Of a stretch of DNA of 63,693 bases, positions 3 through 47,294 are shown in pieces; the stretch's first letter is position 1, and each line of letters opens with the position of its first letter. The notes beneath the pieces are model-generated. The model was not told where the DNA came from. It worked only from the letters and a program-made list of their open reading frames with translations, and ran no database searches. The translations under genes and the position numbers were made by a program. The stretch spans positions 1 to 63,693 of the forward strand of contig JACQRE010000158.1 of the NCBI GenBank assembly GCA_016206585.1, given 5' to 3'. This DNA comes from Candidatus Omnitrophota bacterium (GTDB lineage Bacteria; Omnitrophota; Gorgyraeia; Aquiviventales; Aquiviventaceae).

Positions 3-176
3 GAGCTGGAGATCACCGACGTGAACAATGCGTACATCCAGCGCGGCCAGATGGCCTACGACATCCTGGACGGCTGGTGGACGGACGCGGGGCTGCCGGA
101 GACGCTCTACCGGGCGACGACGCTGGTGCGCGAGCGCGCCCTGCGCGAAGGCCGCGTCGTCGAGAGGGCGGGATGA
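3..176 (+). CDS. rfbA: glucose-1-phosphate thymidylyltransferase, C-terminal fragment (5' end lies outside the window)
   Basis: Frame 3 reads [57 protein letters not shown], an RmlA-type C-terminus. rfbB and rfbD follow. Confidence 0.75.
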
Positions 177-313
177 TCCCACCACCTGGCGGGTCCCGCC
201 AGAGGCGGGATGGCTCGCAGATGACCGTTTTAAACAGACTAAGCGAGCCCCGGCCGGTTGGCCTCAGGGCTCATGGGATTCGCCAACCGGCCGATCACCA
301 GGTGGTGGGATGA
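173..313 (+). repeat. ATGA-flanked intergenic element, copy 1: closing stem plus three hairpins
   Basis: The 14-bp stem 176-189 ATCCCACCACCTGG pairs perfectly with 298-311. Hairpins are 194-200/204-210, 212-218/243-249 and 251-262/282-293. ATGA occurs at 173-176 (stop of rfbA) and at 310-313 (start of rfbB). Confidence 0.8.
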
Positions 314-3595: not shown

Positions 3596-4540
3596 ATGGC
3601 GAAATACTTGGTGACGGGGGGCGCGGGGTTCATCGGGTCGCACATCGTGGACCGGCTCCTCGCGCTGGGACATCAGGTCCGCGTGATGGACGACCTCTCG
3701 TCGGGCAACCTGGAGAACCTCGCCGGGGTGCGCGCCACGATCGAGCTCGTCCAGGCGGACATCCGCGACCGGCAGGCGATGGCGAAGGCCTGCGCCGGGG
3801 TGGAGCGCATCATCCACGCGGCGGCCTGGCGCAGCGTGCCGAAGTCGATGGCCGATCCGTACGGCTACACCGATGTGAACGTCCTGGCCACGGCCAGCCT
3901 GCTGGAGCAGGCGGTCAACGCCAAGGCGAAGCGGGTCGTCTGCGTCTCGTCCAGCTCGGTCTACGGCGAGACCGACCGAGTGCCGCTGCGCGAGGACCAA
4001 CCGACGCTGCCCATCTCCCCCTACGCCGCCTCCAAGCTGATCGACGAGATCCTCTGCGGCCTCTTCTCGCGCAGCTTCGGCCTCGAGACGGTGTCGGTGC
4101 GCTACTTCAACGTGTTCGGGCCGCGCCAGAGCCTGGAGAACGACTACGCGGTCGTGATCCCCAAGTTCATCTCGTGCCTCCTGCGCAAGGAGCCGCCGCC
4201 GGTCTACGGCGACGGCAAGCAGTCGCGCGACTTCACCTACGTGGAGAACGTGGTGGAGGGCACCATCGCCGCCTCGCAAGCGCCCGGCGTCAACGGCGAG
4301 GTGTTCAACATCGCCCTCGGCGAGGAGCACACGGTGCTCGACCTCCTCAACGAGCTCAACGCGATCATGGGCTTGTCCGTTCCGCCCGCCTTCAAGCCGC
4401 CGCGGCCCGGCGACGTGCGCCGGACGCTGGCCGATCCGTCCAAGGCGATGCGGCGGCTCGGCTGGAAGGGGACGGTTCCGTTCGCCGAAGGGCTGCGCCG
4501 CACCGTCGAGTGGTTCTGCGCGCATCCGCCTGGGTCATGA
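3596..4540 (+). CDS. SDR-family NAD-dependent sugar epimerase (WbpP/TviC-like)
   Basis: [43 protein letters not shown] lies 9 nt upstream of the ATG. Confidence 0.88.
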   Translation: MAKYLVTGGAGFIGSHIVDRLLALGHQVRVMDDLSSGNLENLAGVRATIELVQADIRDRQAMAKACAGVERIIHAAAWRSVPKSMADPYGYTDVNVLATASLLEQAVNAKAKRVVCVSSSSVYGETDRVPLREDQPTLPISPYAASKLIDEILCGLFSRSFGLETVSVRYFNVFGPRQSLENDYAVVIPKFISCLLRKEPPPVYGDGKQSRDFTYVENVVEGTIAASQAPGVNGEVFNIALGEEHTVLDLLNELNAIMGLSVPPAFKPPRPGDVRRTLADPSKAMRRLGWKGTVPFAEGLRRTVEWFCAHPPGS

Positions 4541-5813: not shown

Positions 5814-6113
5814 GTGACCAAACAAGCCCTCACCCAGAAGCAGCAGGTGGTCCTCGAGTTCATTCAGCGCTTCTTCACGGAGCACCGGAAGTCGCCGCTC
5901 ATCCGGGAGATCCAAACCGGCTGCCAGATCGCCTCGTACAAATCCGCCATTGACCGGCTCAACGCGCTGGAGCGCAAAGGGTTCATCAGGCGGGCGTCCA
6001 ATAAGCACCGGGGCATCCGGTTAGTGCGCCGGCTGGCCGTTGAAGCGCCGGTGGCCGCCGGAGGGCCGCCGCCGCTGGGCGAGGGAGCGGCCGAGGGAGC
6101 CTCGGTGGTATGA
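5814..6113 (+). CDS. LexA-like winged-helix DNA-binding protein lacking the S24 peptidase domain
   Basis: [29 protein letters not shown]...[17 protein letters not shown]...RGIRLV matches the LexA N-terminal domain. A VAAG motif follows. The protein ends after 99 aa. Confidence 0.75.
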
Positions 6114-6253
6114 TCCCACCACCTGCGCCCCCTTGCCGCAGGCAAGGCACGAAGCGCGCCATGACCAGTCTTGCGGATTTTCAACCGCGCGCTTCGGCGT
6201 GGCGGCCTGCTGTGACGACCATGAGCCGCCGCGAGGCGCAGGTGGTGGAATGA
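6110..6253 (+). repeat. ATGA-flanked intergenic element, copy 2
   Basis: Stem 6113-6128 pairs with 6236-6251 (15/16). Hairpins are 6131-6137/6141-6147, 6150-6159/6187-6196 and 6199-6206/6225-6232. ATGA occurs at 6110-6113 (stop) and at 6250-6253 (start). Confidence 0.8.
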
Positions 6254-7212
6254 GAGTCCTCGTCACCGGCGGGGCGGGGTTCATCGGCTCCCATCTGTGC
6301 GACCGGTTTCTCCGGGACGGCCATGAGGTCGTCTGCGTCGATAACTTCCTGACCGGCAGCCGGACCAACATCGCGCACCTGCGTGCGCAGTCGGCGTTCC
6401 GGCTCATCGAGCACGACATCTCGAAGCCGCTCACCCTCGACGGGGCGATTGACGCGATCCTCCATTTCGCCTCGCCGGCCAGCCCGATCGACTACCTGAA
6501 GCTGCCCATCCAGACGCTGAAGGTCGGCTCGCTGGGCACGCTCAACGGCCTGGGGATCGCGAAGGCCAAGCAGGCGCGGTTCCTGCTCGCGTCGACCTCG
6601 GAGGTGTACGGCGACCCCAGCGTCCATCCGCAGCCCGAGAGCTACTGGGGGCACGTGAACCCGGTCGGGCCGCGCGGCGTCTACGATGAGGCCAAGCGGT
6701 TCGCCGAGGCGATCACGATGGCCTACCACCGGGAGCACCAGGTGGCCACGCGCATCGTGCGGATCTTCAACACGTACGGCCCGCGGATGCGCATGCAGGA
6801 CGGCCGGGCGATCCCGGCGTTCATCACGCCAGCGCTGCGGGGGGAGCCGATCACCGTGTTCGGGACGGGGGCGCAGACGCGCTCGTTCTGCTACGTGGAC
6901 GACCTCGTCGAGGGGATCGTGCGGCTGCTCCACTCCGATCACGCCGAGCCGATGAACCTGGGCAATCCGGAGGAGTACACGATCCTGCAGCTGGCCCAGC
7001 GCATCATCGAGGCCACGGGAAGCAAAAGCCGCATCGTCTACCAGACGCTGCCCCAGGACGATCCCAAGCAGCGGTGTCCCGACATCACGCTGGCAACGCG
7101 GACGCTGCAGTGGCAGGCGGCGACCCCGCTGGCCGCCGGGCTGCCGAAAACGATCGAGTGGTTCAGAACAGCCATGGGGCTGGCGTCCGCCGCAGGAGCG
7201 CGCCATGGCTGA
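6250..7212 (+). CDS. UDP-glucuronate decarboxylase (UDP-xylose synthase)
   Basis: [58 protein letters not shown]. Confidence 0.92.
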
Positions 7213-7621
7213 TCGACCTCCGCGTCCCTGGACCGCGATCGGGCTCGGCCTCGTGTTCGGCCTCTATGCCGTGCTCCTCGTCGCCGCGGTGCGCACGGGA
7301 GCACACCAGGCGTTCACCGGATGGACGGCGAAGCTGCTCACACTCGGCGGCATCGCCCTCGGGCTGCTGCCGTGGGGGGCGTGGCTACGGCCCCGGATCG
7401 TGTGGGGCCTGGGGCTTCTGGGGTGCTGGGCGCTGGTGGCGTGCTACCTCGTCCTGCTGGCACCCATCGCGCTGGTGGTCCGTCTCATCGGCGATCCGCT
7501 CAGCCGCCGGCGGCCCGCCCCCCCACCAACCAGGTTGGTGGGGGGGCCCGCCGGCTCCTCGCACTGGCTGGCGCGGCCCCCGCTGCCCAATACGCTTGAC
7601 GCTGCCCGTGTTGAGTACTGA
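7205..7621 (+). CDS. small polytopic membrane protein, SxtJ-like
   Basis: Three or four hydrophobic spans, then [13 protein letters not shown]. It lies immediately upstream of a carbamoyltransferase, as SxtJ-type genes do. Confidence 0.6.
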
Positions 7622-9776: not shown

Positions 9777-11978
9777 GTGACCATGACACGCGCGCTGATT
9801 ACAGGCATCACGGGACAGGACGGCTCGTACCTGGCGGAGCTGCTGCTGCAGAAGGGCTACGAGGTGTTCGGGATCATCCGGCGCTCGAGCACCTTCAACG
9901 CCACGGTGCCCTTCAGCAAGGTGCTGCAGGAGTGGCAGGCCTCCGGCCAGCTGCACCTGGAGTACGGCGACCTCAACGATGCGAGCTCGCTCAACAAGAT
10001 CGTGCACTCCATCCGGCCGGATGAGATCTACAACCTCGCCGCCCAGAGCCACGTCCAGGTGAGCTTCGACATCCCGGAGTACACCGGCGAGATCACGGGG
10101 CTGGGCGTCGTGCGGTTGCTTGAGGCGATCCGCGAGAGCGACCTCAAGCCGCGGTTCTACCAGGCGTCCAGCTCCGAGCTGTACGGCCGGGTGCAGGAGA
10201 CGCCGCAGCGCGAGACGACCCCGTTCTACCCGCGCAGCCCCTACGCCTGCGCGAAGGCGTACGCGTTCTACATCACGCGCAACTACCGCGAGGCGTACGG
10301 CCTCTTCACCTGCAACGGAATTTTGTTCAATCACGAGACGGTAGCGTCATTTATGCCGATGTTTTGTAAGAACGTTGATGAGGATGAATTTGACATCAAA
10401 CCCATCTGTGAAATCGTCCCTTTTGATGAATCCAATACACAGTATCAAGCTCGAGAGGTTTCCGGAATTTGCGTCTGGGGAAAAGGCGCATGGGTCGATG
10501 TCTCGTATGCCTCCGCATATCCGCATGACGTGATGAGCGACAACAAGAAGCCCAGATTCATCAATGCTCGATCAGGGGCGTTCATGGCGACTTCGAGCCA
10601 TGTCGGCTTCATGGAAGGCGGCGAGGAAAGAGAAGTTGGCAGGATGAGCATTGGCGATCGTTTGGAGCAGCTCGATTTGCCGGAACCTTCCGGGCGAAAC
10701 CCCTATCCGATCTCTGAAGAGGAAGCCGAGCTCTTGGGCATGATGGTGGGGGATGGGTCCTTCACACGGTCGAGGCGGGGCATTGGCGTGCATGGAAAGT
10801 TTACCAATTCATGTCCTGAAATGCGTCAGCGCTTCAGCGACTTATGGTCAAAAGTCACAGGAGGACGCACCACCTATTACCCGACTCGTTCAGGCTTTAA
10901 TCCTGATAACATCGTGGGTCAACTCAGTCTCATAGGCCGAAATGACTGGTTGAGAAGTATAGACATTTATAACCGAGATAGAACCAAGCGCGTTCCCAAA
11001 GTCATTTTGAATTCCGGAAAAGCGATTATGCTGGCGTTCCTGCGCGGCTATAACGCGACCGACGGTCTCAAAAGTAACCCCTGCACGTACGAGTTTAGAA
11101 ACTTTAAGACAAATTCAGCCACATTGGCGATGGGGTTGTGGTATCTGATCGATCAGACCACCATGCAAGATGTCAATTTAACGGTCGAAACCAAAGCAGA
11201 TGGCCGCATCTTCTACTCACTGAACCTATTATCGACGACCGATAACCTCTCGAAGGAGCACAGCGTTCGTGAACTTGCGTTGGCAGACGTGTCTCAACGG
11301 GAAATATCACGCCGGACGGGCATCTCAAGAACCTTTATCCGTAAAATCCAGAACGGCGGTTCCGCATGCTTGACGCATCATCTGCGAAAGGAGTCCTCCG
11401 AAATCAAGAAAATCGTTGAAATGCCGAATTATCAGGGGTGGTTCTATGATCTTGAGACATCGTCGGGTGAATTTCATTGCGGCATTGGAACAATCCATGT
11501 TCACAATTCGCCCCGCCGGGGCGAGATTTTCGTCAGCCGCAAGATCACCCGGGCGGCGACCCGCATCAAGCTGGGGCTGCAGGATGCGCTGCTCCTCGGG
11601 AACCTGGAGGCGAAGCGCGACTGGGGTTACGCGCCCGAGTACGTCGAGGCGATGTGGCTCATGCTCCAGCAGGAGCGGCCGGACGACTACGTGATCGCCA
11701 CCGGCGAGACGCACTCGGTGCGCGAGTTCGTGGAGGAGGCCTTCGGCCACCTGGGCCTTCCGTGGGAGCGGTACGTGAAGACCGATCCGCAGTACCTGCG
11801 GCCCTCCGAGGTGGACGCCCTGGTGGGCGACGCCTCGAAGGCCGGGCGGCAGCTCGGGTGGCGCCCGAAAGTGAAGTTCAAGGACCTGGTGCGCATCATG
11901 GTCGATGCGGACCTGCTCGTGGCGGAACAGGAAGCGCACGCGCAGAGCTTCCAAGCGAAACCGCTCTCCGTGTCATAA
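9777..11978 (+). CDS. gmd: GDP-mannose 4,6-dehydratase interrupted by an in-frame intein (precursor 733 aa, spliced product 343 aa)
   Basis: [43 protein letters not shown] // [15 protein letters not shown]. The start may be the ATG at 9783. Confidence 0.93.
10338..11507 (+). mobile_element. 390-aa intein with a LAGLIDADG homing-endonuclease domain
   Basis: Block [19 protein letters not shown] motifs [11 protein letters not shown] and [13 protein letters not shown]. Blocks [25 protein letters not shown]|S. Visibly AT-rich compared with the flanks. Confidence 0.88.
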
Positions 11979-11980
11979 CC

Positions 11981-12062
11981 ACAGCCAGCAACAAGCAACA
12001 AGCGACACGCAGCACGTGAAGAATATTCTTTCCGTGTTGCATGTCGCATGTTGCATGTCGCG
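11981..12062. repeat. heptamer hairpin, GCGACAA/GCAACAA family, copy B1
   Basis: Left arm is ...AGCAACAAGCAACAAGCGACACGCAGCACG. The core is the palindrome AAGAATATTCTT (12019-12030). Right arm is CGTGTTGCATGTCGCATGTTGCATGTCGCG. Confidence 0.75.
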
Positions 12063-17417: not shown

Positions 17418-18575
17418 ATGCATATTGGGATTGAGGCGCACGGGTTCTGGGGCGACGTCGAGGGGCAGGGCGCCTACATCGCCAACCTGATCCGCGCCCT
17501 GGGCCGGCTGGACCGGACCAACCGCTACACGCTCCTGTTCAACTCCTTCACCCGCACGCCGGCGCGCCGCGCGGCGGTCGCGCGGCAGCTGCCGCCGAAT
17601 TTCCAGGCGGTGTTCCTGCCACTGCCCAACGTCTACCACCCCTCGGTGCTGTTCATGAAGGAGCGGGTGGTCTGGCCGGCGGTGACCCGGCGGCTCGGGA
17701 TCGACGTGTTCCACGCGACGTCGTATCGCGGCATCTTCGCGGAGGGCATGCGGACGGTGCTCAGCGTCCACGACTTCGCCTACCACCACTGCCCGGAGAC
17801 GTTTCGCCCTGAGAGCCTCGGCTATTACCGGCGGCTGCCGCAGGATGCGGCGCGGGCTGCGCTGGTGATGACCCTCTCCGACTCCAGCCGCCAGGATGCG
17901 GTGCGCGTGCTCGGGCTGCCGCCGGAGAAGGTGCGGACGGTCTACGCCGGCGTCGACCTGGACCGGTTCAACACGCGGTCCTCCCTGCCGGAGGTCGAGG
18001 CCACGCGCTCCCGCTACGGCATCCGCTCGCCGTCCATCCTGTTTCTCGGCAACCTGAACCCGAAGAAAAACGTCGGCACGCTGATCGCGGCCCTCGGCCG
18101 GCTGCGCGCGCAGGGCCAGGACCGGTATCAGCTGGTCCTGGCCGGCAAAGCCACGGCGCACCAGGACTCGATCCGCCGGGCGATTGCCGCATGGTCGCTG
18201 GGCGCTCAGGCGGTGTGCACGGGCTTCGTGCCGGACGAGGAGCTTCCGCTCCTCTACCGCGCGGTGGACCTGTTCGCGTTCCCGTCGCTGTTCGAGGGGT
18301 TCGGCCTGCCGGTGCTGGAGGCGATGGCGTGCGGCACCCCGGTGGTGGCCTCGAACGCGACGTCGATCCCCGAAGTGGCCGGCGAGGCGGCGGTCCTGGT
18401 GGATCCGCGGGATGCGGCAGCACTCGCCGCGGCGATCCGGCGCGTGTTCGAGGACGCGGCGCTGCGCGCCTCGCTCGTCGAGCAGGGGGCAGCACAGGCG
18501 CGCCGTTTTTCCTGGGAGCAGGCGGCCGCCCGCGTGCTGGACGTCTACCGCGCGGCGGGCAACGGGGCGAGATGA
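17418..18575 (+). CDS. GT4-family glycosyltransferase
   Basis: MHIGIEAHGFWGDVEG..., FPSLFEGFGLPVLEAMACGTPVVAS. Confidence 0.9.
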   Translation: MHIGIEAHGFWGDVEGQGAYIANLIRALGRLDRTNRYTLLFNSFTRTPARRAAVARQLPPNFQAVFLPLPNVYHPSVLFMKERVVWPAVTRRLGIDVFHATSYRGIFAEGMRTVLSVHDFAYHHCPETFRPESLGYYRRLPQDAARAALVMTLSDSSRQDAVRVLGLPPEKVRTVYAGVDLDRFNTRSSLPEVEATRSRYGIRSPSILFLGNLNPKKNVGTLIAALGRLRAQGQDRYQLVLAGKATAHQDSIRRAIAAWSLGAQAVCTGFVPDEELPLLYRAVDLFAFPSLFEGFGLPVLEAMACGTPVVASNATSIPEVAGEAAVLVDPRDAAALAAAIRRVFEDAALRASLVEQGAAQARRFSWEQAAARVLDVYRAAGNGAR

Positions 18576-45796: not shown

Positions 45797-46423
45797 ATGA
45801 ACCCTGACGCCTATCGCGAACTCAAAGTGCTCGAAGAGCTGTCCCACAATGCCGATCACACCCAGCGGCATCTGGCCAAGCAACTTGGGGTCGCACTGGG
45901 CCTGACCAACCTCATGATCAAGCGGCTGGTCCGGAAGGGCTATGTCAAGATCGTGAACCTCCAGCGCAACCGCATTCGCTATCTGGTCACCCCCCAGGGC
46001 ATTGCCGAGAAGACCCGCCTCACCTACGAGTACCTGGAGTACTCCCTCTATCTGTATCGCCGCGTCCGCGAGGTGCTCCAGCAGCGCATGCGCGAGGTCG
46101 GCGAGCGCGGCGGGAAGGACATCGTGCTCTTCGGGGTCGGGGAGCTCGCCGAGGTCGCCTACCTGACGATCCGGGGGCAGGGGCTCAACCTCGTGGGGGT
46201 CGTGGATGACCGGGTGGCCGGCACGACGTTTCTGGGGCTGGCCGTGTCGCCCTCCGAGGCGCTGCCGGCCCTGCAGTTCGACGCCGTGATCGTCAGCTCC
46301 CTGGATAACGAGTTGGTCGGACTGAACAGGCTCCAGGAACTGGGAATCGACCGGGCACGCATCATCGTCATGGAGCAGCGCGGCTCGCAGATTCACCCGG
46401 TCCTGCCGGGAGCCAGCCGATGA
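45797..46423 (+). CDS. MarR-like winged-helix regulator fused to a Rossmann-like C-terminal domain
   Basis: TQRHLAKQLGVALGLTNLMIKRLVRKGYVKI, then DIVLFGVGELAEVAYL...VGVVDD. Confidence 0.7.
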   Translation: MNPDAYRELKVLEELSHNADHTQRHLAKQLGVALGLTNLMIKRLVRKGYVKIVNLQRNRIRYLVTPQGIAEKTRLTYEYLEYSLYLYRRVREVLQQRMREVGERGGKDIVLFGVGELAEVAYLTIRGQGLNLVGVVDDRVAGTTFLGLAVSPSEALPALQFDAVIVSSLDNELVGLNRLQELGIDRARIIVMEQRGSQIHPVLPGASR

Positions 46424-46560
46424 TCCCACCACCTGCGCCGGCCACGCCGGTGGCGTGGCCGCGAGGCGCTCGAATGAGTCGACACGTCATGAGAGTGATG
46501 CAACTACTGAACGGCCTCGCCACGGCGGCGTGCCGCCGTGGGGCGCAGGTGGTGGGATGA
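46420..46560 (+). repeat. ATGA-flanked intergenic element, copy 3
   Basis: Perfect 17-bp stem 46423-46439 / 46542-46558. Hairpins are 46440-46448/46452-46460, 46461-46467/46514-46520 and 46521-46529/46532-46540. ATGA occurs at 46420-46423 and 46557-46560. Confidence 0.85.
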
Positions 46561-47294
46561 GCCAACGCACTGGGCGTGCGAGGCGCCTTCGCTGGCTGCT
46601 CATCGGGTCGCTCGCGCTGACAGCGCTCATCGGGTCGTTGACCGCCACGCTCACGACCCGCCAGGGCGTGAACTTCCAGGTCACCGCCGCCCCGCTTCCT
46701 GCCTACGTCAAGGCGATCGATTTCCTCCATCGCGACGCGCACTACTACCTCCTTGCCCGGGAGATCACCCGGGGCCTGCCGGCGGGCCGCCGCGCGGCGG
46801 CCGACCGCGACCGCGCGCTGGCCGTCTTCCGCTGGACGCAGGAGCACCTGCGCCCGACACCGGAAGGCTGGCCCGTCGTCGATGACCACATCCTGCACAT
46901 CATCATCCGGGGACACGGTGTCGCGGATCAGTACGCGGATGTCTTCACTACCCTCTCGACATACGCTGGCGTGCCGGCCTTCTGGCAGCCGATCCGTGAG
47001 CCGGCCTCGGGCCGGACGCTCATCCTCTCCTATGCGAAGGTGGACGGCCGCTGGGCCGTCTTCGACGTGTTCCACGGGGTGGTCTTCAGCCGGCCGAGCG
47101 GGGAGCTCATCAGCGCGGAGGAATTGGCCGCGGACCCCGCGCTGGCGGATGTCGCCTCCGGAAGCCTCCCCTACCGCCAGCTCTTGACGGGTTATCGCGC
47201 CCCGGTGGTGCCGCGTCCCTTGCGCGCCGAACTGCAGATGCCGTGGCCCCGGGCGGTCCACACGTTGCATCAGATGGTTGGAGGCACCAGGTAA
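46557..47294 (+). CDS. membrane-anchored transglutaminase-like protein, probably catalytically inactive
   Basis: N-terminal transmembrane span. RGHGVADQYADVFTTLSTYAGVPA resembles the transglutaminase core but has Ala where the catalytic Cys is expected. Confidence 0.5.
   Translation: MSQRTGRARRLRWLLIGSLALTALIGSLTATLTTRQGVNFQVTAAPLPAYVKAIDFLHRDAHYYLLAREITRGLPAGRRAAADRDRALAVFRWTQEHLRPTPEGWPVVDDHILHIIIRGHGVADQYADVFTTLSTYAGVPAFWQPIREPASGRTLILSYAKVDGRWAVFDVFHGVVFSRPSGELISAEELAADPALADVASGSLPYRQLLTGYRAPVVPRPLRAELQMPWPRAVHTLHQMVGGTR

Follow-up and report, generated by a model that had tools for sequence, protein, structure and literature searches.

A family of miniature inverted-repeat elements with a putative ribosome-relay mini-ORF at gene junctions of Omnitrophota-type genomes

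Background

Mycobacterial interspersed repetitive units (MIRUs) are direct, often tandemly arranged (variable-number tandem repeat, VNTR) units of 40-100 bp, found in mycobacteria and not known to have terminal inverted repeats (TIRs) or a cloverleaf fold. They are apparently mobile, insert at start codons and contain an internal open reading frame (ORF) coupled at a -4 spacing, with harm minimised (Supply et al. 1997, as summarised in PMC12548453). The element described here occupies three spacers, at positions 173-313, 6110-6253 and 46420-46560, in a 63,693-nt stretch of contig JACQRE010000158.1 of a Candidatus Omnitrophota bacterium (the whole stretch being referred to as the window). [quoted passage not shown]

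Several other classes of repeat bear on the comparison. The Correia (Neisseria) and ERIC/IRU (enterobacterial) MITEs are small TIR-bearing repeats that occur in operon transcripts, form long stems and can affect the mRNA; Correia elements duplicate TA. Transposons of the IS5 and PIF-Harbinger types, and their MITEs, have short TIRs, a 3-bp target duplication and a T-N-A-like target, while HUH (IS200/IS605) elements have asymmetric ends, a fixed tetra- or pentanucleotide on one side and are not known to make a duplication. REP/REPIN sequences are described in PMC3733652 as palindromes of 20-40 bp that bear a GTAG or CGTC tag and lack a target duplication. Rickettsia palindromic elements (RPEs) are translated, palindromic, MITE-like repeats of ~100-150 bp that are tolerated as the frame is kept, and the 2024 review of prokaryotic MITEs that describes them contains no occurrence of the terms 'start codon', 'stop codon' or 'translational coupling' (PMC10969869). 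Short leader or intergenic ORFs are known that, when translated, unfold an RNA structure in which a downstream ribosome-binding site (RBS) is held, an intergenic small ORF (sORF) of Salmonella being one example (PMC8092293).

Extent and variants of the family

The sequence-only reading of the window took the three spacers for copies of one mobile, structured design and expected that more would exist. In the window, the 13-mer arm ATCCCACCACCTG or its complement occurs with up to two mismatches at six sites (176, 299(-), 6113, 6239(-), 46423 and 46546(-)), as compared to a mean of 1.48 matches in the shuffled window, and six matches were reached in 0 of 100 shuffles. The expectation of further copies was borne out by a scan of species-representative genomes for exact arms 95-125 nt apart, with the outer A and T required, which recovered 78 loci beyond the window in 20 species-level metagenome-assembled genome (MAG) assemblies and yielded an analysed set of 82 copies. 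The MAGs concerned are labelled as Omnitrophota/Omnitrophica, Planctomycetales/Planctomycetia or uncultured bacterium, and the GC content of the 78 loci ranges from 0.45 to 0.71. The largest numbers of loci are found in the MAGs SBAZ01 (17, the maximum) and JACQRD01 (14). The family is confined to Omnitrophota-type genomes. No match to the exact pattern was found in viral contigs, blastn against plasmid and phage collections gave no match, and literature searches for such a repeat in Omnitrophota found none.

Exact-arm copies are 121-153 nt in size and variants span 31-228 nt (including 58, 107-115 and 228 nt), the sole coding content being a mini-ORF of 40-50 codons in the standard copies. 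The variant-arm copies were found by local mismatch-tolerant searches, and some carry compensating changes in both arms. One copy in locus L023 (~4142-4180, reverse strand) consists of the arms only and encodes the 11-codon peptide MIPPPVLQVVG followed by a stop. Very short copies are also present in L053, at 1886-1939 and ~1040-1160 (MIPPPAFGLKGQKTILEVVG followed by a stop), and at one 3' end among the short copies of L023 and L053 an extra arms-only hairpin lies in another reading frame. The only tandem pair occurs in L009 (5598-5727 and 5730-5883), where one ATGA is common to both copies and a chain of two mini-ORFs results. A copy in L017 (7271-7400) has an interior masked with N and was left out of the analysis.

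Termini, target-site duplication and insertion polymorphism

The element ends, TCCCACCACCTG and CAGGTGGTGGGA, constitute a perfect, symmetric 12-nt TIR. In a local collection of arm pairs for which no condition was set on the flanks, identical 3-nt flanks were observed in 94 of 100 pairs, and these matched flanks read TGA (TCA on the other strand) in 89 cases, TAA/TTA in three, TAG/CTA in one and ACA in one. The target duplication, for which four base pairs (ATGA) had been proposed, is accordingly 3 bp long and corresponds to the stop codon, which is TGA and rarely TAA or TAG. The right-hand A belongs to the element as its last base, which explains why the right side always reads ATGA and the left side is variable. 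A copy with TAA/TAA flanks is located between mazE-like and mazF/PemK-like genes in both L049 (- strand, 6982-7132) and L068 (- strand, 7365-7515), where a TAATG overlap has been created.

Empty junctions in related genomes, a check suggested by the sequence-only reading, were found as clean counterparts of filled ones. The filled site CCATGA[TCCC..GGGA]TGAGCG of L018 corresponds to the empty TCATGAGCG of L052, and reciprocally the filled GCCATGA[..]TGATCGC of L052 corresponds to the empty GCCATGATCGC of L018. Three further junctions differ in the presence of the element between L029 and L056 (~80% identical), and a filled versus an empty junction is also seen in L003/L042. Among 32 distant metagenomic orthologues of the gene that follows the third window copy, the element is present in none, and the junction in one of these, L081, is the plain ggATGAGC expected for an empty site. 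The matching flanks and the empty and filled sites uphold the proposal of a MITE-like insertion at a stop/start junction that keeps both codons. Several features by which MITEs are recognised are observed, namely TIRs, a target-site duplication, small size without a transposase gene, dispersed copies and presence/absence polymorphism. Beside the element in L056 (~1730-1830) lies a ~100-nt spacer full of ATCAGCG/GCTGAT-like heptamer repeats; none are found in the orthologous spacer of L029, the end of which (TTGTGGGATGA) is similar to an element end.

The element occurs in both orientations. The copy in L030 is identical at 90 of 121 positions to the reverse complement of the L056 copy from the same genome, as compared to 56 of 121 in the same orientation, and L040 matches the reverse complement of L059 at 102 of 127 positions but L059 itself at only 72 of 134; L029 likewise agrees with L002 in reverse complement at 107 of 139 positions. 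Copies of one lineage lie either way round relative to the translated strand, each with an open ORF of length 3n+1. Hairpin sizes are mirrored as well, with 19/38/43 nt in the first window copy versus 43/38/19 nt in the SBAZ01 subfamily, so that the hairpin order H1-H2-H3, put forward as the design of the family, holds for the window copies but is reversed in some copies elsewhere. At two orthologous junctions which are both filled (the second window copy/L035 and L034/L062), the interiors are unrelated in either orientation, and inversion in situ was rejected for these two pairs on this basis.

Frame, length and stop-codon constraint of the mini-ORF

The arm-to-arm length is of the class 3n+1 in 71 of the 82 copies, 3n in nine and 3n+2 in two. 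A length of 3n+1 places the left ATG and the right TGA in one frame, and the copies of this class, which fall into eleven length classes (121, 124, 127 ... 151 nt), translate as MIPPP(A/V/G)...QVVG and a stop over 40-50 codons, with QVVE instead of QVVG only in the second window copy and L060. After de-replication to 36 clusters the 3n+1 class still accounts for 29 (binomial p = 8e-9), and it accounts for eight of 12 additional TGA-flanked copies that were not selected by exact arms. The mini-ORF frame is depleted of stop codons: it contains two per 3125 codons, as compared to 76 and 61 for the remaining sense frames and 61, 53 and 46 for the three antisense ones. The cluster representatives have none in this frame, as compared to 46 and 27 in the remaining sense frames. 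Nine copies derive from genomes of 45-52% GC, and eight of these are of the 3n+1 class. In all eight the mini-ORF frame is open, while the other sense frames are open in one and none and the antisense frames in five, none and four. The initial description of an untranslated structured spacer did not survive these observations, as the left ATG and right TGA share one open frame, the lengths are 3n+1 and stops are depleted.

At the left end a start codon nearly always overlaps a stop, the tetranucleotide there reading ATGA in 66 copies, GTGA in eight, TTGA in three and CTGA in one; the right one is ATGA throughout. In three copies TAA stands on either side. Variability in the alignable subfamilies is the same at codon positions 1, 2 and 3 (0.32, 0.34 and 0.33), and this lack of codon-position bias indicates that the openness of the frame is under selection and the peptide is not. 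In-frame ATG codons inside the 3n+1 copies number 65, versus 24 and 12 in the other frames; position-specific composition predicts 28, 22 and 20, respectively. The ATGA(C/G) pointed out in the large H2 loops is present and forms part of this enrichment.

Seven of the nine 3n copies contain an internal NTGA hand-over (ATGA in five, GTGA in one and TTGA in one). In this two-step relay the first frame stops at the NTGA, and from a start in the -1 frame a second short ORF extends to the terminal TGA. The same count on antisense frames gave a rate of 0.34, from which p = 0.01. In L075 (3n+2), an open read-through leads into the frame of the downstream ATG. The copies that persist are probably those with an open mini-ORF, attained by a 3n+1 length or by an internal NTGA hand-over. 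Given the 3n+1 constraint and the stop depletion, coupling is best explained by ribosomes translating through the element, and not only by a terminating ribosome that opens the stem.

Secondary structure and strand-neutrality

The conserved arms, closing stem and three internal hairpins reported for the window spacers were reproduced with RNAfold in all three (-84.9, -83.9 and -95.4 kcal/mol; z = -7.25, -7.45 and -9.01, that is, -7 to -9), as three abutting hairpins within the stem. The helix coordinates given for the first copy were likewise recovered. The three interiors align poorly with one another, and the opposite strand of each copy folds no more weakly than the given strand. Across the 82 exact-arm copies, the closing stem measures ~17 bp and complementarity extends past the arms, with the variable stem positions 14-17 Watson-Crick paired in 82-95% of copies versus 33-64% in shuffles and pairing breaking off at position 18 (2% Watson-Crick). 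Exactly three hairpins are present in 63 of the 82 minimum free energy (MFE) folds, and the interiors alone fold better than their shuffles (mean z -3.8; z below -2 in 69 of 82).

A sense-RNA signature was sought in the energies, G.U pairs and mismatches of the copies and none was found, the MFE being -85.0 for the sense and -86.0 for the antisense strand (p = 0.16), G.U pairs 209 versus 216, and internal mismatches G.T in 109 and A.C in 104 cases. The near-equality of G.T and A.C mismatches, together with the occurrence of both orientations in one lineage, indicates that the interior is not a strand-specific RNA motif. No match was obtained against Rfam at gathering scores over the whole window, in agreement with the statement that no named RNA family is represented, and a search of positions 100-400 at E values up to 10 yielded nothing beyond chance snoRNA matches. 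An attC site, a ribozyme and a tRNA-like processing signal were rejected, given the lack of conserved nucleotides at the junction and the existence of arms-only copies. RNA-level excision that restores the ATGA junction was discarded because under it the open frame would not be selected. A role of the loops as guides or spacers was discarded too: the single match outside catalogued elements lay in a copy cut by the end of L003, and the rest were 11-12-nt chance matches. In L024 and L046 (both SBAZ01000074.1), the first hairpin loop is identical and the second loops are unrelated, a mosaic which suggests recombination between copies.

Gene context and proposed ribosome relay

An ORF of at least 80 codons ends exactly at the left stop in 62 of the 82 copies, versus 15% for a random TGA, and one of at least 80 codons starts at the right ATG in 73. 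Fourteen copies have no upstream gene and occupy leader positions, and among the leader copies L008 (AAGGAG) and L010 (GGAG) provide the mini-ORF with a Shine-Dalgarno (SD) sequence of its own. In L077 (- strand, 4431) and L070 (- strand, 3055), a TATAAT-like box is found a few bases before the mini-ORF ATG, and these leader mini-ORFs may be translated from a leaderless transcript.

Insertion of the element at an (A/G/T)TGA junction would retain the upstream stop, and the original start codon, being left behind, would open the mini-ORF M-I-P-P-P. At the other end, the last A of the element and the duplicated TGA would recreate ATGA, by which the downstream gene would regain an ATG in its own frame that overlaps the mini-ORF stop (...Q-V-V-G-stop). 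This rebuilding of codons works in either orientation because the ends are symmetric. In the mRNA, the arms would pair as a ~17-bp GC-rich stem that buries the SD-like AGGUGGUG and the downstream AUG, and the earlier proposal that the stem conceals the downstream RBS and AUG remains plausible. Ribosomes supplied by the upstream gene, or by the SD or leaderless start of the mini-ORF itself in the 5' leader copies, would read through the element and open the stem, then terminate at the UGA and reinitiate 1 nt upstream. In this scheme we infer the translation of the mini-ORF, the dependence of the downstream gene upon it and the identity of the transposase. The prolines at codons 3-5 could add a dependence on elongation factor P (EF-P) or a pause that holds the left arm, but could just as well result from the arm sequence as a by-product. 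It may also be speculated that the structure limits access by Rho or RNase.

The three copies in the window

All three copies start with ATGATCCCACCACCTG, end with CAGGTGGTGG(G/A)ATGA and have ATGA on both sides (173-176/310-313, 6110-6113/6250-6253 and 46420-46423/46557-46560). As had been read from the sequence, in the window copies a long upstream frame terminates at the left TGA and a long downstream frame begins at the right ATG. In the first copy, the mini-ORF (173-313, + strand) runs from the ATG at 173-175 to the TGA at 311-313, is open over 46 amino acids and has an arm-to-arm length of 136 nt, which is 3n+1. The left TGA of the duplication (174-176) is the stop of an upstream NTP_transferase-like gene (frame 3-173), the right one (311-313) is the mini-ORF stop, and the body between them (177-310) is bounded by the perfect 12-nt TIR. 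The element's last A (310) and the TGA form the ATGA from which an RmlB-like gene (310-1347) starts, with its ATG at 310-312. The left arm of the closing stem (176-192), which encodes IPPPG, pairs with the right arm (295-311) through 14 bp, one bulge and 2 bp, and the right arm contains the SD-like AGGTGGTG as well as bases 1 and 2 of the downstream ATG. Hairpin 1 (193-211) has a 3-nt loop, hairpin 2 (212-249) a 24-nt AT-richer loop with an in-frame ATG (within ATGA), and hairpin 3 extends from 251 to 293. Pfam assigns the flanks to the C-terminus of an NTP_transferase and to an RmlB-like dehydratase, and an exact-protein look-up of the gene starting at 310 returned no recorded match.

The second copy encodes 47 amino acids (6110-6253, + strand; body 6114-6250). 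Its left TGA (6111-6113) is the stop of an ORF with a LexA_DNA_bind domain, and its right TGA (6251-6253) overlaps the ATG (6250-6252) of an epimerase-like gene (6250-7212), both neighbours being assigned accordingly by Pfam. The right arm carries a single G>A change (GGAAT). In the fold, the left strand of the closing stem (6116-6129) pairs with 6235-6248 and the hairpins lie at 6131-6147, 6150-6196 and 6198-6233. The third copy (46420-46560, + strand; body 46424-46557) encodes the 46 amino acids MIPPPAPATPVAWPRGARMSRHVMRVMQLLNGLATAACRRGAQVVG followed by a stop. The left TGA (46421-46423) terminates a MarR/HTH_24 gene (45797-46423), and the right TGA (46558-46560) overlaps the ATG (46557-46559) of a 245-amino-acid gene (46557-47294); Pfam recognises a MarR/HTH protein upstream and makes no family assignment downstream. 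The closing stem is 17 bp long (46423-46439 with 46542-46558) and encloses hairpins at 46440-46460, 46461-46520 and 46521-46540.

On the + strand of the window, a long series of genes in the same orientation is linked through 4-nt overlaps (ATGA/GTGA) which are free of the element and resemble its targets. Many such plain overlaps were found at the other junctions, as described previously, with examples at 18572, 19369, 21776, 25654, 29497, 30765, 32150, 32779, 33426, 35616, 39319, 44318, 51151, 51774, 55949, 58797 and 61313. The region 10001-12000 has a GC content of 0.565, versus 0.67-0.72 elsewhere in the window, and may represent a foreign gene in a polysaccharide-type cluster.

Weighing the explanations

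Several observations weigh against a translated MITE. The ~0.7 Mb of retrieved loci yielded neither a transposase nor an autonomous element with such ends, and none of the arm pairs sought at 0.2-4 kb apart resembles a full-length element. The exact-arm scan forces T-N-A flanks through its outer A and T, a bias that the flank-free and variant-arm sets lessen only in part. Eleven of the 82 copies are off the 3n+1 class and four of these (L007, L055, L062 and L075) have no two-step NTGA relay. Frames of ~45 codons are commonly open in GC-rich DNA (when the interiors were read in the three antisense frames of each copy, 124 of 246 reads were open), and what carries the case for translation is consequently the way in which the frames differ, together with the length classes and the low-GC copies. 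Pairing of the right arm with the anti-SD tail, at -10.7 kcal/mol and within the top 3% of window 15-mers, speaks in favour of the relay, but the tail used is the canonical one, which may not be that of this phylum. A plain MITE model leaves the persistence of three hairpins in all subfamilies unaccounted for, and among paralogues of one genome the stems are near-invariant and the 20-24-nt loops near saturation at constant length. The copy of L049/L068 is moreover 96% identical, versus ~80-85% for its coding flanks. Neutral loops, hypermutable loops, inter-copy recombination or quasi-palindrome correction each account for only part of these features, to which the L024/L046 mosaic and the unrelated interiors at two orthologous junctions also belong. 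The left arm GAUCCCACCACCUG itself resembles the canonical anti-SD tail, which is assumed here for this phylum.

An untranslated structured RNA spacer, in which the stem hides the downstream RBS until a terminating ribosome melts it and the four-way junction is a functional RNA motif, would account for the strong fold, for the SD-like sequence and part of the AUG inside the stem and for the covariation at stem positions 14-17. It predicts neither the 3n+1 constraint nor stop depletion in a single frame nor internal NTGA hand-overs, however, and with equal mismatch types, sense and antisense strands that fold alike, a lineage that functions in both orientations, arms-only copies without any junction and no Rfam match, it is very unlikely. 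Mobilisation as single-stranded DNA by an HUH enzyme (REP/RAYT or IS200/IS605-derived), with the folded hairpins as the recognition structure and no true target duplication, has somewhat more in its favour. The hairpin architecture is conserved and the sequence is not (as seen in the three-hairpin folds and interior z-scores), the strand-symmetric mismatches lend the structure a DNA-level look, and no DDE partner was found in the retrieved loci. It is nevertheless improbable, since the trinucleotides to the left and right vary together (TGA/TGA, TAA/TAA, TAG/TAG and ACA/ACA) as in a target duplication, the ends are symmetric and occur in both orientations, and arms-only copies exist. The open ORFs, proper start and stop codons and conserved N- and C-termini might even be taken for a genuine family of small-protein genes (MIPPP...QVVG) with a function of its own. 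The purifying selection on amino acids that such genes should show is contradicted by equal variability at the three codon positions, one subfamily has interiors unrelated to those of another, the peptides encoded by flipped copies are altogether different, and the conserved termini are the inverted repeat read in frame, down to an 11-codon version made of the arms only, which renders this explanation scarcely credible.

A further possibility, which adds to a MITE origin and does not replace it, is domestication of the element into a gate with a regulatory role. EF-P relieves ribosome stalling at PPP, and a ribosome paused on the PPP of MIPPP would hold the left arm and free the SD and AUG of the right arm, so that the relay would depend on EF-P or pausing and dozens of downstream genes would be co-tuned. 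PPP is present at codons 3-5 in all exact-arm and most variant-arm copies, genomes that range from 45 to 70% GC share identical arms, the L049/L068 copy is better conserved than its coding flanks, and in-frame loop ATGs exceed expectation (65 versus ~28). The complementarity of the arms forces PPP and QVVG upon each other, though, and PPP may therefore be a mere by-product of a transposase-binding end; copies gained and lost between relatives, and unrelated interiors at orthologous junctions, give the family a selfish rather than a host-maintained look. We consider such a gate unlikely. The same tentative standing applies to its extension into a bidirectional relay cassette, which would rebuild the start, supply the SD-like sequence and lock both in a 17-bp stem that only a ribosome on the mini-ORF could open, in a manner dependent on EF-P or ribosome flux through the PPP, with the hairpins reflecting structure-specific mobilisation or maintenance. 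If a gate of this kind existed, dozens of operon junctions in these genomes would be under one shared translational throttle.

Comparison with known systems

Three candidate assignments were set aside. The ends read TCCCACC without the GTAG or CGTC tag of REP/REPIN sequences and flanking duplications are present; an IS200/IS605-derived element is at odds with symmetric ends, co-varying flanks and both orientations; and for an integron attC site, with its R''/L''...L'/R' cores (GTTRRRY), arrays of cassettes and an integrase close by, the ends are not GTTRRRY and copies are located at only three of the many window junctions, an integrase not having been searched for. With IS5-type and PIF-Harbinger-type elements the family shares short TIRs, a 3-bp duplication and a T-N-A-like target, which provides a lead by description only; it differs in that TAG and ACA duplications also occur and no transposase was found in the retrieved loci. 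As in Correia and ERIC elements, a small TIR-bearing repeat lies in transcribed intergenic regions, but the start/stop-codon design and the frame constraint seen here are not described for either in PMC10969869.

RPEs resemble the present element in being palindromic, MITE-like and frame-preserving. An RPE is, however, an in-frame segment of a host protein, whereas the present element adds 3n+2 bases and forms a separate inter-gene mini-ORF with start/stop overlaps. Its copies occupy gene junctions as ORFs of their own, and fusion of its frame to a neighbouring gene is rare (L075 and L001_4003). The proposed logic of an RBS and AUG held in a stem that translation of a short ORF unfolds is shared with short ORFs such as the Salmonella sORF, which are single locus-specific regulators; here the putative device is borne by a multi-copy mobile element.

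The closest likeness is to the MIRUs, in that a mobile repeat sits at gene junctions and an internal short ORF is joined to its neighbour by a 4-nt overlap, its start and stop overlapping the flanking stop and start. The comparison is one of description and not of sequence. Unlike MIRUs, the element has symmetric 12-nt inverted ends, a duplicated 3-bp stop codon and a 17-bp stem with three hairpins, is bidirectional and mostly single-copy per site without a tandem VNTR organisation, and resides in Omnitrophota-type MAGs. It constitutes a new family of MITEs, whose putative ribosome relay follows a MIRU-like design. One practical consequence is that ORFs of 40-50 codons and true downstream starts are likely to be mis-called in Omnitrophota MAGs. 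The family also offers a natural experiment on translational coupling, with many junctions that carry the same stem and different interiors, relevant to reinitiation versus de novo initiation and to portable coupling cassettes. More broadly, it would represent a second, independent example of a rare strategy by which a selfish repeat in compact operons is turned into a ribosome relay, the only precedent found being the mycobacterial MIRU. The design is more elaborate than that of the MIRU, as symmetric ends encode, whichever way the element lies, both where the relay begins and where it stops, the downstream gene has its ATG rebuilt and two-step relays proceed through an internal ATGA.

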